From Escherichia coli (lineage in GTDB: Bacteria > Pseudomonadota > Gammaproteobacteria > Enterobacterales > Enterobacteriaceae), in assembly GCF_044647545.1 (NCBI RefSeq), contig NZ_CP172818.1: a stretch of 64,000 bases of DNA. The stretch is one strand, 5' to 3'. The notes under the pieces are model-generated. The model made no database searches. It was not told the origin of the DNA and saw nothing but the letters and a program-made list of their open reading frames with translations. Positions 11,849 to 36,329 of the stretch are shown here, one piece after another (positions within the stretch are counted from its first letter, which is position 1; the number at the start of each line of letters is the position of its first letter). A program made the translations under genes and the position numbers.

Positions 11849-12970
11849 TTACCCTTCGAAGAACCAGTATCCGCTATTGACCAGCGCCGCGAGCATCGCG
11901 AGGAATGACGGATCTTCCAGCGCATCGCCAAAATTCTCCGCGGTCAGCGCAATGTTGCTGGCGAGCGCATCCAGTGCCGGACGGTGCGGGGAATCGATCT
12001 TCTCACCATTGGCATACACATCGTCGCCAATGCGCAATACGCGCAGACCCCCCAGGCGCACCAGCACATCACCTTGTTTCAGCGCATCGTAGATTTCATC
12101 CGGCTGATAAGGCGGCTCTGGCGGCGCGATATCCAGTTCATGACGTGACTGGGATATAAACTCGCCAAACCATTGCTTAAAATGTTCCGGCTGGTTGATC
12201 AATTCGAGCATCATCTCACGCAGTTTATCCATCTCTTGCGGCAGAACGTCCGCAGGATGAGCGCGAGGTGGAACATCAGGATCGCTGTAGTAGTTGCCGC
12301 CCAGTTCACGTTGCAGCACATAATCGGCAAATCCACTAATCAGTTCCCGCGTATTTGGCGCGCGAAAACCTACGGAATAGTTCATCGCATTTTCCAGCGC
12401 GTAGCCTTCATGCGGGAATCCTGGCGGAATATAAAGAATATCACCAGGCTCCAGCTCTTCATCGATGATGGCTTCGAACGGATCGACCTGTAACAGATCC
12501 GGATGTGGGCAGTGCTGTTTCATTTGCAGCTTTTCACCCACTCGCCAGCGACGACGTCCGGTACCCTGAATAATAAACACGTCGTACTGATCGAGATGTG
12601 GGCCGACGCCGCCGCCAGGTACGGAAAAAGAGATCATCAGGTCATCAATACGCCAGTCCGGTAGTTCACGGAACGGTCGCATTAGCGCGGCGGTCGGCTC
12701 ATGCCAGTGGTTCACTGCCTGTACCAGTAACGACCAGTTGGTTTCACCGAGATGATCGTAGCTTTCGAACGGGCCGTGGCTGACCTGCCATTTGCCATCC
12801 TGGTGACTGACCAGTCGACTGTCGACTTCGCTTTCCATCGCCAGACCCGCCAACTCGTCTGGAGAGATCGGGTCAATAAAATTATTAAAGCCGCGTTTTA
12901 ACACCACCGGGCGTTTCTGCCAGTGACGTTCAAGAAAATCGGGCCAGTTAAGAGTGAGTTGGTATTCCAT
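11849..12970 (-). CDS. roxA: Ribosomal protein uL16 arginine hydroxylase (JmjC/cupin), RoxA/YcfD
   Basis: Track ORF trimmed to ATG 12970 (MEYQLTLNWPDF). Cupin Fe-site region GVGPHLDQYD. Confidence 0.9.
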   Translation of the reverse strand: MEYQLTLNWPDFLERHWQKRPVVLKRGFNNFIDPISPDELAGLAMESEVDSRLVSHQDGKWQVSHGPFESYDHLGETNWSLLVQAVNHWHEPTAALMRPFRELPDWRIDDLMISFSVPGGGVGPHLDQYDVFIIQGTGRRRWRVGEKLQMKQHCPHPDLLQVDPFEAIIDEELEPGDILYIPPGFPHEGYALENAMNYSVGFRAPNTRELISGFADYVLQRELGGNYYSDPDVPPRAHPADVLPQEMDKLREMMLELINQPEHFKQWFGEFISQSRHELDIAPPEPPYQPDEIYDALKQGDVLVRLGGLRVLRIGDDVYANGEKIDSPHRPALDALASNIALTAENFGDALEDPSFLAMLAALVNSGYWFFEG

Positions 12971-19852: not shown

Positions 19853-21103
19853 ATGGAAAGTAAAGTAGTTGTTCCGGCACAAGGCAAGAAGATCACCCTG
19901 CAAAACGGCAAACTCAACGTTCCTGAAAATCCGATTATCCCTTACATTGAAGGTGATGGAATCGGTGTAGATGTAACCCCAGCCATGCTGAAAGTGGTCG
20001 ACGCTGCAGTCGAGAAAGCCTATAAAGGCGAGCGTAAAATCTCCTGGATGGAAATTTACACCGGTGAAAAATCCACACAGGTTTATGGTCAGGATGTCTG
20101 GCTACCTGCTGAAACCCTTGATCTGATTCGTGAATATCGCGTTGCCATCAAAGGCCCGCTGACCACTCCGGTTGGTGGTGGTATTCGCTCTCTCAACGTT
20201 GCTCTGCGCCAGGAACTGGATCTCTACATCTGCCTGCGTCCGGTACGTTACTATCAGGGCACTCCAAGCCCGGTTAAACACCCTGAACTGACCGATATGG
20301 TTATCTTCCGTGAAAACTCGGAAGACATTTATGCGGGTATCGAATGGAAAGCAGACTCTGCCGACGCTGAGAAAGTGATTAAATTCCTGCGTGAAGAGAT
20401 GGGCGTGAAGAAAATTCGCTTCCCGGAACATTGCGGCATCGGTATTAAGCCGTGTTCTGAAGAAGGCACCAAACGTCTGGTTCGTGCAGCGATCGAATAC
20501 GCAATTGCTAACGATCGTGACTCTGTGACCCTGGTGCACAAAGGCAACATCATGAAGTTCACCGAAGGCGCGTTTAAAGACTGGGGCTACCAGCTGGCGC
20601 GTGAAGAGTTTGGCGGTGAACTGATCGACGGCGGCCCGTGGCTGAAAGTTAAAAACCCGAACACCGGCAAAGAGATCGTCATTAAAGACGTGATTGCTGA
20701 TGCATTCCTGCAACAGATCCTGCTGCGTCCGGCTGAATATGATGTTATCGCCTGTATGAACCTGAACGGTGACTACATTTCTGACGCCCTGGCAGCGCAG
20801 GTTGGCGGTATCGGTATCGCCCCTGGCGCAAACATCGGTGACGAATGCGCCCTGTTTGAAGCCACCCACGGTACTGCGCCGAAATATGCCGGTCAGGACA
20901 AAGTAAACCCAGGCTCTATTATTCTCTCCGCTGAGATGATGTTACGCCATATGGGCTGGACTGAAGCCGCAGACTTGATTGTTAAAGGTATGGAAGGCGC
21001 AATCAACGCCAAGACTGTAACCTATGACTTCGAACGTCTGATGGAAGGCGCTAAACTGCTGAAATGTTCAGAGTTTGGTGACGCGATCATCAAGAATATG
21101 TAA
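19853..21103 (+). CDS. icd: Isocitrate dehydrogenase (NADP) Icd
   Basis: 416 aa with motif NLNGDYISD. The last 161 nt lie inside the prophage-flanking direct repeat. Confidence 0.97.
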
Positions 21104-21154
21104 TTACTACATGTGTTAAATATTGTAACGGGCGTATAACACGCCCGTTGTTTT
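20943..21154 (+). repeat. Left 212-bp direct repeat (icd 3' end plus terminator; attL side)
   Basis: Reads identically to 36118-36329 in my base-by-base comparison. Confidence 0.9.
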
Positions 21155-21156
21155 TT
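21127..21156 (+). terminator. icd Rho-independent terminator (copy 1)
   Basis: 9-bp stem aacgggcgt/acgcccgtt, 5-nt loop, then a T6 run. Confidence 0.85.
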
Positions 21157-21172
21157 GTTAGGCTGCTAACGG

Positions 21173-21205
21173 TTATCAAAATTTTATCAAAAAAAGTTAT
21201 CAAAA
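21173..21205 (+). repeat. Three direct TTATCAAAA copies (candidate integrase arm-type sites)
   Basis: TTATCAAAA at 21173, 21184 and 21197, just inside the left junction. A fourth copy in the same orientation lies at 35988-35996 near the right junction. Confidence 0.45.
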
Positions 21206-21596: not shown

Positions 21597-22262
21597 TTAT
21601 ATTGCATTACAACTCCCAACAGTGACATATGAACTTCCTGCTTTACTCCACGACTTTAATATTTCAAGGCCATGTGAAGAACATATTTCTTGCACTGCGA
21701 GTTCATCGAGTAATCCATAGTAAGAAACACTTTTTGAATTTTTGTAAATGTATCCGTAAAGATGTTTTCTTCCTGTTTCGTATTTTTTGAAGTATGAGCT
21801 TTTATATTGATTTACAATAAGAGTCTCACCTCCTGATTTTAGTAATCTCTTGATGCTAAGAACTATTTTGTCGATTGTATCCCGACAAGGAACGGCAGAG
21901 AGAACATTAGAGCAAAGGATGAAATCGTAACCCCCAATTATTTTGTCGACATCCTCGAAAGCAACTGTATTTGCATTTTTATAATATCGTGGGACATAGT
22001 CAATAATTTTAGTTTTAATTCCTCTAATAATTTGCTCTCTTTCAAGTTGCCTTTTCGAGTCTAGAAAAGTAACTTCATCAAATTTACTGATTAATTCATC
22101 AGAATATCTAAGTTTTCCGCAGCCAAAATCAAGGGCGTGGCCATTTTTCTCAATGCTTCTAATATACTCGCAAAGATATCTAGAGGGCATCGTATGAGGT
22201 TTTGCTGCATTCTCTGAGCGAATATTAACTCCGTGCATATTATAGTTCAAAGCAAGTACCAT
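21597..22262 (-). CDS. ymfD: Class I SAM-dependent methyltransferase YmfD (substrate unknown)
   Basis: 221 aa. Motif I ALDFGCGKLRY, acidic post-I FLDS, motif IV-like FILCSNVL. Very AT-rich. Start abuts the ymfE stop (TGAATG). Confidence 0.85.
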   Translation of the reverse strand: MVLALNYNMHGVNIRSENAAKPHTMPSRYLCEYIRSIEKNGHALDFGCGKLRYSDELISKFDEVTFLDSKRQLEREQIIRGIKTKIIDYVPRYYKNANTVAFEDVDKIIGGYDFILCSNVLSAVPCRDTIDKIVLSIKRLLKSGGETLIVNQYKSSYFKKYETGRKHLYGYIYKNSKSVSYYGLLDELAVQEICSSHGLEILKSWSKAGSSYVTVGSCNAI

Positions 22263-22976
22263 TCAATTAATGTTATTTTTAGTGAAAAATTCTTTTATTT
22301 TATCGTCCGGGATTTTTCCGACTTGACTTTCAGTTCTGGGCTTAACTGTCAAAGCAAAGATAATACCACTCACTGAGAATGATAAAATTACAAAAAAGAA
22401 TAAAGACAGCAAAGAACCTTCAACATGAAAAATATCCATTTGTTTGCAAAAAAAGATTATTAGGAAGGAAATTAATGCAATTATCGAAAATTCAAAAAAT
22501 ATCCAAAAATAGTATACTTTATTCCAGAAGAGTTCAATATAATGTTTGTCTTCAATTTTTCTTACTTCAGGGTAATATAGATTGCTCATTACATTGTGAG
22601 CTTCATCTTTATTTAATTTTCTGTTGACTCCAGCTCTCCGTGATAACGGTTTTATAATTAGATGCTTATCCCAAAGATATCGCACCCGAAGTAGTTTGGC
22701 TGCATTGTTATGTAGGTCTAACGCACCGCTAATTAAATATGCAAAAATCGCAAAAGCACAAGGTAATATACCAAAAGATAGTGCCCAATTAATAAAGCTC
22801 TCATGATCTTTAATAGGTGGGACATACTTGGTTGGTAATGTTATTAAAGGGATGTATTCGTAAATAACTAGAAGTATGCAATATATTAGCGTATTTAAGA
22901 AAGTTGCTTTATGAAGTTTAGGCAACATTTCATTATAATTTTTGGGGGGTTCGAACATATTATTCACCTGAGTCAC
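22263..22976 (-). CDS. ymfE: Polytopic inner-membrane protein YmfE (function unknown)
   Basis: 237-aa ORF with about 4 hydrophobic helices and alternative Met starts within the first 7 codons. Translationally coupled to ymfD. Confidence 0.8.
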   Translation of the reverse strand: MTQVNNMFEPPKNYNEMLPKLHKATFLNTLIYCILLVIYEYIPLITLPTKYVPPIKDHESFINWALSFGILPCAFAIFAYLISGALDLHNNAAKLLRVRYLWDKHLIIKPLSRRAGVNRKLNKDEAHNVMSNLYYPEVRKIEDKHYIELFWNKVYYFWIFFEFSIIALISFLIIFFCKQMDIFHVEGSLLSLFFFVILSFSVSGIIFALTVKPRTESQVGKIPDDKIKEFFTKNNIN

Positions 22977-23168
22977 GCTTTAGGATAGTGTAATGGTAAT
23001 ATTTAATTAAGTGTCATTATATACTTTTCAGTAGGTTAGTTACAATTTTTTGTATCTGTTCAGGCTGACCTAGCTTCGCTGACAGACAATATTGTGATCA
23101 GTAGCACGTATCGAGGAGGAGTAGCGCTACAAATTTGACGCTGGGTGAGAATCTGAAATTGATAGAAA

Positions 23169-23232
23169 TGAAATAATGAAATAATGAAATGATGAAATGA
23201 TGAAATGATGAAATGATGAAATGATGAAATGA
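23169..23232. repeat. 8-bp tandem repeat, 8 copies (2 x TGAAATAA + 6 x TGAAATGA)
   Basis: Counted directly in the sequence. Lies in the divergent ymfE/lit intergenic region. Confidence 0.95.
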
Positions 23233-23424
23233 TGACAGAGTGTCCAGTGGGCACGGATGGTGTCTTACGACATGCTTACCTTAATCGTTCCCAGTGTGCC
23301 TATAGCAGATATTCTAAACATGTCGATAATTCATTACGCATATAGTATCGAACATAGAAAAAACTGAAGATTCATCTTATTTTGTATATACTACCTAGCC
23401 CAACAATGTAGAGGTTAACGAAAA

Positions 23425-24318
23425 ATGCGCTCACCAATTTGTCATCTTTTCTCAGCAATTAATTCATCACCATTTAAGATTGCACCAGAGAAGGAGCAAG
23501 ATCTTAAAACGATAGTTGACGACAAAAAAATTATAATTTCAGTTGTGAGTGAACCTGGTTTTAATATCCGAGTCAGGAAGAATGAGAGTAATAATTCACA
23601 TGAAATAGTTCTAACAGTAGCTTCACTTGAATATATTTGGGCATTTTCCAATTTCTTTTGGGTTTTTACGCAAGAGTACTCCAAATCTCAGAAAAATAAT
23701 GATGAGCACTTTGATTTAACAGGAAAAAATAGGCTTAAAAAGTCTGATGAACTTCTTAAATGGGCAAGGAAAAACTTGCAAACAACAGGTTGCGAATCAT
23801 GGCCTAAAAAATGTCCCAAGCCAGAAGCATATTTACAAGGAAGCGAAGACTCACAAGTTGCTAGCGAGATATTTCTTTGTGCTATTGCTTGGATTCTTCA
23901 TCATGAAATAAGTCATGTTGTTTTACAGCATCCATTGGTCACTACAGCATTCTCCACTCAAGAGGAGCGTGAAGCAGATTCACATGCTACAAAATGGATA
24001 TTAGGCAACCTGTATGAATCCGCTCCTGAATTAAAGAAACGTGCACTTGGCATTGCTACGGCAGTGCTTTGTATACAAAGCTTAGAAGTTGAAAATTACT
24101 TCTGTTTACAAAATACACACCCAGCTGCATATGAGCGTATATATTCGAATATTTCATGCTACCCTGTCGGAAATGAAGAGTTGATTGAAGCTCTATGTAC
24201 AGTGATGCTTCAATATCTTTTCCATGGCAAAAATATCAATGTGAATCTAGATGGGGAGTCCTTTTCATCGATTTTAGGTGATCTTCTCTGTGATATTTCA
24301 CGTCTTACCAGTAACTGA
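23425..24318 (+). CDS. lit: Lit: phage-exclusion zinc metalloprotease (cleaves EF-Tu during T4 late gene expression)
   Basis: 297 aa with HExxH motif (HHEISH). Recognised as e14 Lit. Confidence 0.92.
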   Translation: MRSPICHLFSAINSSPFKIAPEKEQDLKTIVDDKKIIISVVSEPGFNIRVRKNESNNSHEIVLTVASLEYIWAFSNFFWVFTQEYSKSQKNNDEHFDLTGKNRLKKSDELLKWARKNLQTTGCESWPKKCPKPEAYLQGSEDSQVASEIFLCAIAWILHHEISHVVLQHPLVTTAFSTQEEREADSHATKWILGNLYESAPELKKRALGIATAVLCIQSLEVENYFCLQNTHPAAYERIYSNISCYPVGNEELIEALCTVMLQYLFHGKNINVNLDGESFSSILGDLLCDISRLTSN

Positions 24319-36117: not shown

Positions 36118-36277
36118 TACGCCATATGGGCTGGACTGAAGCCGCAGACTTGATTGTTAAAGGTATGGAAGGCGCAATCAACGCCAAGACTGTAACCTAT
36201 GACTTCGAACGTCTGATGGAAGGCGCTAAACTGCTGAAATGTTCAGAGTTTGGTGACGCGATCATCAAGAATATGTA
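36118..36277 (+). pseudogene. icdC: Displaced icd 3' fragment (icdC)
   Basis: Identical to icd 20943-21103 and lacks the 5' 1.1 kb of the gene. Confidence 0.9.
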
Positions 36278-36329
36278 ATTACTACATGTGTTAAATATTG
36301 TAACGGGCGTATAACACGCCCGTTGTTTT
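36118..36329 (+). repeat. Right 212-bp direct repeat (attR side)
   Basis: Identical to 20943-21154. Includes the terminator hairpin at 36302-36324. Confidence 0.9.

Follow-up and report, generated by a model that had tools for sequence, protein, structure and literature searches.

Short sequence units repeated head to tail in bacterial control regions belong to several described kinds of loci, and the nearest to the one analysed here are the variable-number tandem repeats (VNTRs), or microsatellites, of MLVA. The array of 8-bp units between the divergent genes ymfE and lit of prophage e14 resembles them in its short head-to-tail units, in its intergenic location and in strain differences by whole units on near-identical flanks. 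It differs from typical VNTR loci in lying in a rare mobile element (282 of 5426 complete Escherichia coli genomes, nearly all of them K-12 lineages), and we are not aware of an MLVA scheme that includes it. Our analysis indicates that the array is probably a VNTR made by slippage in AT-rich foreign DNA, which sits in a shared upstream region, has no dedicated function and, by way of spacing or phase, exerts a modest effect at best.

Another kind of counterpart is the contingency locus with a simple-sequence repeat (SSR) at a promoter, as in the TA repeats between the -35 and -10 elements of Haemophilus influenzae hifA/hifB and the TAAA tract upstream of Neisseria meningitidis nadA. The e14 locus is like such loci in having a non-triplet unit in the control region and natural variation in copy number, and like hifA/hifB in its divergent promoters. 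However, the e14 array does not lie between the -35 and -10 elements of the mapped promoters but upstream of either -35 box, at a distance of more than 120 bp, and the wild arrays are very short (three units). A tract of the nadA type is the nearer analogy, if the e14 array acts at all. To our knowledge, phase variation in E. coli usually relies on DNA inversion or Dam methylation.

The array can also be compared with the extended -10 promoters and "promoter islands" found in E. coli DNA of horizontal origin, with which it shares the repeated TGnAATRAT motif in AT-rich foreign DNA and the binding of RpoD in vitro, but it has no mapped transcription start. Promoter islands have not, as far as we know, been described as overlapping sites set at a strict 8-bp period by a tandem repeat. 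Contiguous short repeats serve as protein-binding sites in the 7-bp heptad arrays of the omega repressor and in the tetramer boxes of 8-bp period bound by ParG, and the bar minigenes of phage lambda sequester peptidyl-tRNA. The product of the gene next to the array, Lit, is a textbook example of an abortive-infection enzyme. How strongly it acts depends to a large extent on how much of it is expressed, and its native regulation is barely described.

The array and its place in e14

The window, that is the whole stretch of 64 kb that was analysed, covers the icd/e14 prophage region of E. coli K-12 with the gene order icd(+), ymfD(-), ymfE(-), lit(+), intE(-), xisE(-). The products of the genes around the array are a methyltransferase-like protein (ymfD), a membrane protein (ymfE) and a peptidase (lit), and the ymfD-ymfE-lit module of e14 is AT-rich and horizontally acquired. 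The array is housed in the 448-bp spacer between ymfE and lit (22977-23424). It ends 193 nt before the lit ATG and starts 193 nt from the GTG of a 237-aa ymfE ORF, in agreement with the distance of about 190 nt to both genes in the earlier note; the annotated ymfE start (22967) is 202 nt away. The features of the region are collected in Table 1.

Table 1. Positions of the array, its flanking repeat, promoters and genes in the window
Feature	Position	Strand	Remarks
Two "a" units, TGAAATAA x2	23169-23184	+	a-unit number 1, 2 or 3 among alleles
Six "g" units, TGAAATGA x6	23185-23232	+	g-unit number 2 or 6 among alleles; G>A in unit 6 of one allele
Degenerate proto-repeat TGAAATTGATAGAA, left flank	23155-23168	+	the copy spanning 23160-23191 matches the reference copy at 78% identity
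Mapped lit promoter	23364-23401	+	-35-like CTGAAG 23364-69 (weak), -10 TATACT 23387-92, TSS 23401 (+/-2)
Mapped ymfED promoter	23008-23045	-	-35 TTGTAA 23045-40, 18-bp spacer, -10 TATAAT 23021-16, TSS 23008
In-silico sigma-70 promoter TTGATA(23159-64)-15 bp-AATAAT(23180-85)	23159-23185	+	TG at 23177-78; -10 across the junction of units 2 and 3
lit, cell-death peptidase (Peptidase_U49), T4-exclusion gene	23425-24318	+	ATG at 23425
ymfE	22263-22967	-	divergent operon with ymfD
ymfD, downstream of ymfE	21597-22262	-	

Direct reading gives two copies of TGAAATAA (23169-23176 and 23177-23184), then six copies of TGAAATGA and then TGACAGAG; below, the two units are abbreviated as a and g, respectively. 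Tandem Repeats Finder (TRF) delimits the array to 23168-23235 with a period of 8, 8.5 copies, 98% matches and a score of 122, and a second repeat search returned the same register. The description of the array as two plus six 8-bp units, 64 bp in total, is thus exact, and with eight head-to-tail units at 98% matches and this score the array is as near-perfect as a VNTR is expected to be. The second-best tandem array of the 64-kb window scores 49. The G+C content falls from 47% in the window to 35% in the ymfE-lit spacer and 22% in the array. The degenerate copy in the left flank is the likely seed from which the array expanded.

A two-unit pattern, with at most 2 mismatches allowed, matched the window 10 times; shuffled sequences gave 2.0 +/- 1.3 matches and none of the 100 shuffles reached 10. 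Eight of the ten matches are the array itself, and the scan of the 64-kb window found no occurrence of the two-unit motif in other regulatory DNA of e14, such as its immunity region.

A 64-aa ORF on the minus strand (23060-23254) runs over the array. It appears because TCATTTCA, the unit as read on that strand, is free of stop codons in all three frames, while on the plus strand every frame meets TGA or TAA within a few units. When the spacers were rebuilt with 3, 4, 8 and 9 units, the N- and C-terminal frames were joined differently in each allele. No protein is therefore conserved, since each allele fuses different upstream and downstream frames, and we reject this ORF as a gene, in line with the earlier note, which had called coding unlikely. 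The array is also free of a recognizable RNA constraint. An Rfam search at E<=1 returned a sole chance match to a C/D-box family (E 0.41, 16 bits against a gathering score of 36). No hairpin or cruciform was found at the array; the fold z-scores are 0.24 and -0.44, and neither strand beats its shuffles. In this freedom from both coding and structured-RNA constraint the array again resembles a VNTR.

The array is not a constant companion of lit. When the 700 bp in front of lit homologues were examined in seven other contexts, no comparable repeat was found, the best TRF results being two-copy chance repeats. Lit homologues with 73-74% amino acid identity lack the array, and only the proximal ~100 nt of their spacer, which includes the promoter and start-site region, can be aligned. 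The array was present at none of three Lit loci in viral contigs that were obtained with a Lit profile search, and blastn of the spacer against 50,697 phage genomes gave no match. On the other hand, more than 120 stretches from unrelated bacteria and archaea, as well as 30 viral contigs, carry arrays of the type (TGAAATRA)n with n>=3; these reach 16 units and are spread over Bacteroidota, archaea, Vibrio, giant-virus contigs and others. The occurrence of the motif in unrelated genomes argues that it is a generic, slippage-prone, AT-rich microsatellite that was expanded by chance in e14, and not a conserved part of a lit cassette.

The neighbourhoods of distant Lit homologues differ from each other. 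The gene lies directly upstream of AbiTii-family and HNH genes (L195-L198), beside DUF2290 and HAD_SAK_2 genes (L185-L190) or between fragments of a Y2-transposase (L183-L184), which would fit Lit being a mobile cargo gene of defence islands.

Several further elements of e14 were noticed on the way. A 210-bp copy of the icd 3' end at 36120-36329, 86% identical to ~20894-21103, is the displaced icd 3' end at the other end of e14. It marks the far boundary of the prophage, which therefore spans about 20.9-36.1 kb of the window, or ~15.2 kb. Inside the left end of e14, just past the icd stop (21103) and a terminator-like hairpin (~21127-21157), there are three direct copies of (G)TTATCAAAA with a period of 11-12 bp (21172-21205). 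These might be protein-binding sites, e.g. arm-type sites of the integrase or Xis sites, but their distance of ~280 bp to the apparent att junction is large for arm sites. The array itself was considered as a set of integrase arm sites and rejected: some 2.3 kb separate it from the icd/att junction, and the TTATCAAAA repeats closer to att have a different motif. Directly to the right of the array, a G+C-rich patch in the AT-rich DNA (23233-23262) contains the small palindromes GACAgagTGTC and GTGTCCagtGGGCAC (imperfect), and an 11-nt inverted repeat, CGACATGCTTA / TAAACATGTCG, follows at 23268-23325. The palindromes and the inverted repeat are possible operator-like elements, and they do not change between alleles.

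Mapped promoters and promoter-like motifs

In the SMRT-Cappable-seq data of Yan et al. (2018; PMC6131387, Supplementary Data 2) the operon b1139 (lit) starts at 1198671 on the forward strand and the operon b1138|b1137 (ymfE-ymfD) at 1198278 on the reverse strand. Window positions are obtained from NC_000913.3 coordinates by subtracting 1175270, a conversion that was checked on icd (1195123 = 19853), on the lit ATG and on the icd start site of Kim et al. (2012). The transcription start sites (TSSs) then fall at 23401 for lit and 23008 for ymfED. Each start fits the local sequence, being placed a short way downstream of a good -10 box. The lit leader between the TSS and the ATG has 24 nt. The ymfED promoter is strong, with a hexamer match of 10/12 in a promoter scan. 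Kim et al. (2012) give a second ymfE 5' end at window position 22986, and their table holds no lit TSS.

Relative to these start sites the array occupies -169 to -232 of lit and -161 to -224 of ymfED; its centre is at 23200.5 and the midpoint of the two TSSs at 23204.5. Its distance from either -35 box exceeds 120 bp, and it lies outside both core promoters and both mapped transcripts. The array therefore has no means of changing the -35/-10 spacing in the working promoters, and the shift of promoter-element spacing that the earlier note had expected from a change in copy number falls away. The only core promoter or defined regulatory site that overlaps the array is a promoter predicted in silico and unverified.

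This prediction has its origin in the repeat unit. Each unit together with the next T reads TGnAATRAT, a sequence similar to an extended -10 element with both -11A and -7T. The form TGAAATAAT (5/6 plus TG) occurs twice and the form TGAAATGAT (4/6 plus TG) six times, so that on sequence the array does qualify as a series of extended -10 elements. A TTGATA in the left flank stands 15 bp upstream of the second AATAAT. Shimada et al. (2014; PMC3946193, Table 1) predicted the lit promoter to be TTGATA-15-AATAAT and that of ymfED to be TTGTAA-18-TATAAT; these promoter picks were made in silico. In genomic SELEX the RpoD holoenzyme binds the ymfE-lit spacer in vitro without other factors (PMC3946193; PMC5811629, legend of Figure 4). 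The mapped lit TSS is 209 bp further downstream than the predicted promoter. The SMRT-Cappable-seq supplements (PMC6131387) list no entry whose coordinate begins with 11983-11985 and thus no TSS at the array (~1198439-1198502), and neither they nor the table of Kim et al. (2012) record a primary 5' end ~7 nt downstream of the extended -10-like motifs. The composition of the array affects the predicted promoter: in going from agg to aagg, i.e. from one to two a-units, the hexamer at the 15-bp position changes from AATGAT (4/6) to AATAAT (5/6).

Copy-number alleles

The spacer was found in 282 of the 5426 complete E. coli genomes, and a blastn search aimed at diverged copies returned the same 282 records and nothing further. 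All but one of them (281) align in one piece with at least 99% identity over 448 bp. A single 8-bp indel in the 448-bp spacer would lower the identity to 98.2% or less; an alignment of this quality leaves no room for it, and all 281 genomes therefore have the 8-unit array aagggggg. Going by name and size, they are overwhelmingly K-12 derivatives (MG1655, W3110, BW25113, J53, C600, HB101 and evolved lines). The remaining complete genome, that of the clinical strain 1297KP, has the array agg and two SNPs in the spacer. Queries with the 4-unit and the 3-unit allele found this single 3-unit strain and no other shorter allele among the complete genomes.

Contigs that encode the Lit variant of 1297KP (P0075) added eight further agg arrays and one aagg. 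This wild haplotype differs from K-12 by 12 SNPs in 2.5 kb of flank and carries agg in nine of its samples and aagg in the tenth. Two more arrays were found on K-12-type flanks (0 and 1 SNP, up to 2.5 kb compared): aaagggggg in a metagenome contig (L003) and aagggagg in a Logan contig (L176). The chromosomal or distal e14 DNA of both is 1-2% divergent from K-12, and they therefore come from wild strains. A search of metagenomes with a 25-mer of the left flank returned 2 loci. In the 13 non-K-12 samples there are five alleles and both unit types vary, with three units as agg (nine times), four as aagg, nine as aaagggggg and eight with a point change as aagggagg.

The alleles thus differ by whole units on flanks that are constant but for 0-12 SNPs (up to 2.5 kb of flank), as in VNTR loci. 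Since the array changed within each haplotype while the surrounding kilobases did not, its length likely varies by replication slippage. The slipped-strand variability that the earlier note suggested checking by copy number across e14 carriers is borne out by these natural alleles, which go in whole-unit steps. Rapid switching is not demonstrated by the allele spectrum, given that the consensus of K-12 does not vary and that the array most often seen in wild strains has only three units. Length differs between wild strains and is invariant in the 281 K-12-type consensus genomes, where consensus assemblies are blind to minority variants.

Some records call for care when the copy number is read. 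Two 15.19-kb circular "plasmids" of E. coli c41 and c44 in PLSDB (OR902851.1 and OR902858.1; L178 and L179) carry the K-12 Lit and the 8-unit array. Their size fits excised e14 circles that were deposited as plasmids, and their ymfE and int genes are split in a way that looks like long-read indel errors. Short-k-mer assemblies of K-12 stop inside the array, as in two Logan contigs of 9117 bp (L164 and L177) that start with ...TGAAATGA x3, and the block-size histogram of K-12 Lit is dominated by contigs below 10 kb. The array is a systematic assembly breakpoint, and the copy number is therefore unreadable from such short-k-mer contigs.

Explanations of the array

An effect of the array on transcription is plausible, because the sigma-70 holoenzyme alone binds the spacer in vitro and the array is built of extended -10-like motifs. 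It could be that the array is itself promoter DNA, acting either as a distal second lit promoter with a leader of ~233 nt or as a non-productive cluster of RNA polymerase that competes with the two real promoters. Our scan finds TTGATA-15-TGaAATAAT in any allele with at least two a-units, and the identical pair is the lit promoter listed for the spacer that is bound by the RpoD holoenzyme in vitro (PMC3946193; PMC5811629). However, that listing is an in-silico pick within a low-resolution SELEX-chip peak, for which the strong ymfED promoter could suffice, and the 15-bp spacer is poor. Moreover, the sole recorded lit TSS is that at 23401, with none for lit in Kim et al. (2012), and the array coordinates are empty in the SMRT-Cappable-seq supplements. 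We therefore regard promoter activity of the array as unlikely. An extension of the same idea would combine it with slippage: a change between one and at least two a-units would make or weaken TTGATA-15-TGaAATAAT and the number of units would re-phase the upstream region, so that the array might act as a stochastic tuner of Lit and YmfED. This reading of the motifs and alleles is, in our estimate, quite unlikely; if it were true, an SSR-type contingency switch would operate on a phage-defence gene in E. coli. Alternatively, slippage at a useful frequency might switch or tune lit and/or ymfED from a distance, through length or helical phase and e.g. through H-NS assembly, as a form of bet-hedging in costly phage exclusion. 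The perfect repeat of a unit that is not a multiple of three, its intergenic position between divergent promoters, the AT-rich module and the five alleles among 13 wild samples with near-identical flanks would all suit such a contingency locus, and the dosage of lit matters for phage exclusion (PMC7553319). Nevertheless, the array is outside both core promoters, the 281 K-12-type genomes are invariant, nine of the ten samples of the wild haplotype have 3 units, which we judge too few for frequent slippage, and the other Lit loci have no array. The evidence on H-NS at e14 is mixed: strong H-NS sites are almost absent in e14 according to genomic SELEX (PMC5811629), while the abstract of a 2026 preprint reports that immunity loci are bound and silenced by H-NS. 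The text of the preprint names both ymfE and lit, and the terms "tandem repeat" and "phase varia..." do not occur in it. Altogether a contingency locus seems improbable to us. Thus, of the phase-variation device proposed in the earlier note, a real, non-coding repeat with whole-unit variation stands, and the switch is not supported: the array is in neither core promoter, all 281 K-12-type genomes have 8 units and the commonest wild allele has 3.

Two further explanations give the units themselves a function. As contiguous short direct repeats upstream of two promoters they could be a row of sites for a specific DNA-binding protein, which was also the alternative offered in the earlier note. 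Arrays of operators or iterons have a cognate protein, a motif that recurs at other controlled sites and a presence and number of sites that are conserved among relatives. Here, in contrast, the motif has no second copy in the 64-kb window, the immunity region of e14 included, none of the adjacent genes is a candidate partner (given the products of ymfD, ymfE and lit), the number of sites ranges from 3 to 9 within e14, and the homologous Lit loci of seven other contexts have no array; a binding-site array is thus very unlikely. The plus strand can also be read as a chain of Met-Lys-stop minigenes (ATG-AAA-TGA / ATG-AAA-TAA) similar to lambda bar, in which eight AUG-AAA-stop units follow each other and each stop overlaps the next AUG. 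A bar-type minigene has a Shine-Dalgarno sequence, an AUG, one or two codons and a stop on a transcribed strand. The units of the array do have the AUG-AAA-stop, but no Shine-Dalgarno sequence precedes any of them, no mapped plus-strand transcript runs over the array, as the lit TSS is 169 nt downstream, and the wild allele has three units only, which makes a minigene chain hardly credible.

The preferred reading, a VNTR of no dedicated function, would work as follows. An octanucleotide microsatellite would arise and change its length by replication slippage in the ymfD-ymfE-lit module of e14. Each unit gained or lost would resize the shared upstream region by 8 bp, or about -86 degrees of helical phase, and this would be its sole direct physical effect. 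The array would be near-neutral under selection, and any effect on lit or ymfED would be modest and quantitative at most. The repeat, its whole-unit polymorphism, its position relative to the published TSSs, its non-coding status and its absence at other Lit loci are observations; slippage and the lack of a dedicated function are what they suggest, and neutrality we infer from an absence of evidence. Because all 281 K-12-type genomes have 8 units, there is no sign of a rapid switching that became fixed over a century of laboratory lineages. What speaks against a near-neutral VNTR is the suggestive position of the array at the centre of a divergent control region beside a toxic abortive-infection gene whose level of expression matters, its length and perfection, which are unusual for E. 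coli (it has the top TRF score in 64 kb), and the binding of the sigma-70 holoenzyme to the spacer together with the extended -10-like motifs.

In practice the array is a strain-variable marker inside e14 that breaks short-k-mer assemblies, and it accounts for the in-silico "lit promoter" having been set ~210 bp upstream of the later-mapped start. If the repeat number did tune lit, K-12 with 8 units and the wild e14 carriers with mostly 3 would differ in phage exclusion, and lit would join the rare defence genes of E. coli that are under simple-sequence contingency control. Cells that overexpress lit from multicopy Dub-seq fragments are protected against several phages (PMC7553319). Besides the repeat number, the P0075 haplotype differs from K-12 at two positions of the spacer, 23328 (A>G) and 23398 (G>A). 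The latter precedes the mapped lit TSS by 3 nt, and a difference in expression between K-12 and wild e14, if there is any, could come from this SNP instead of the repeat.
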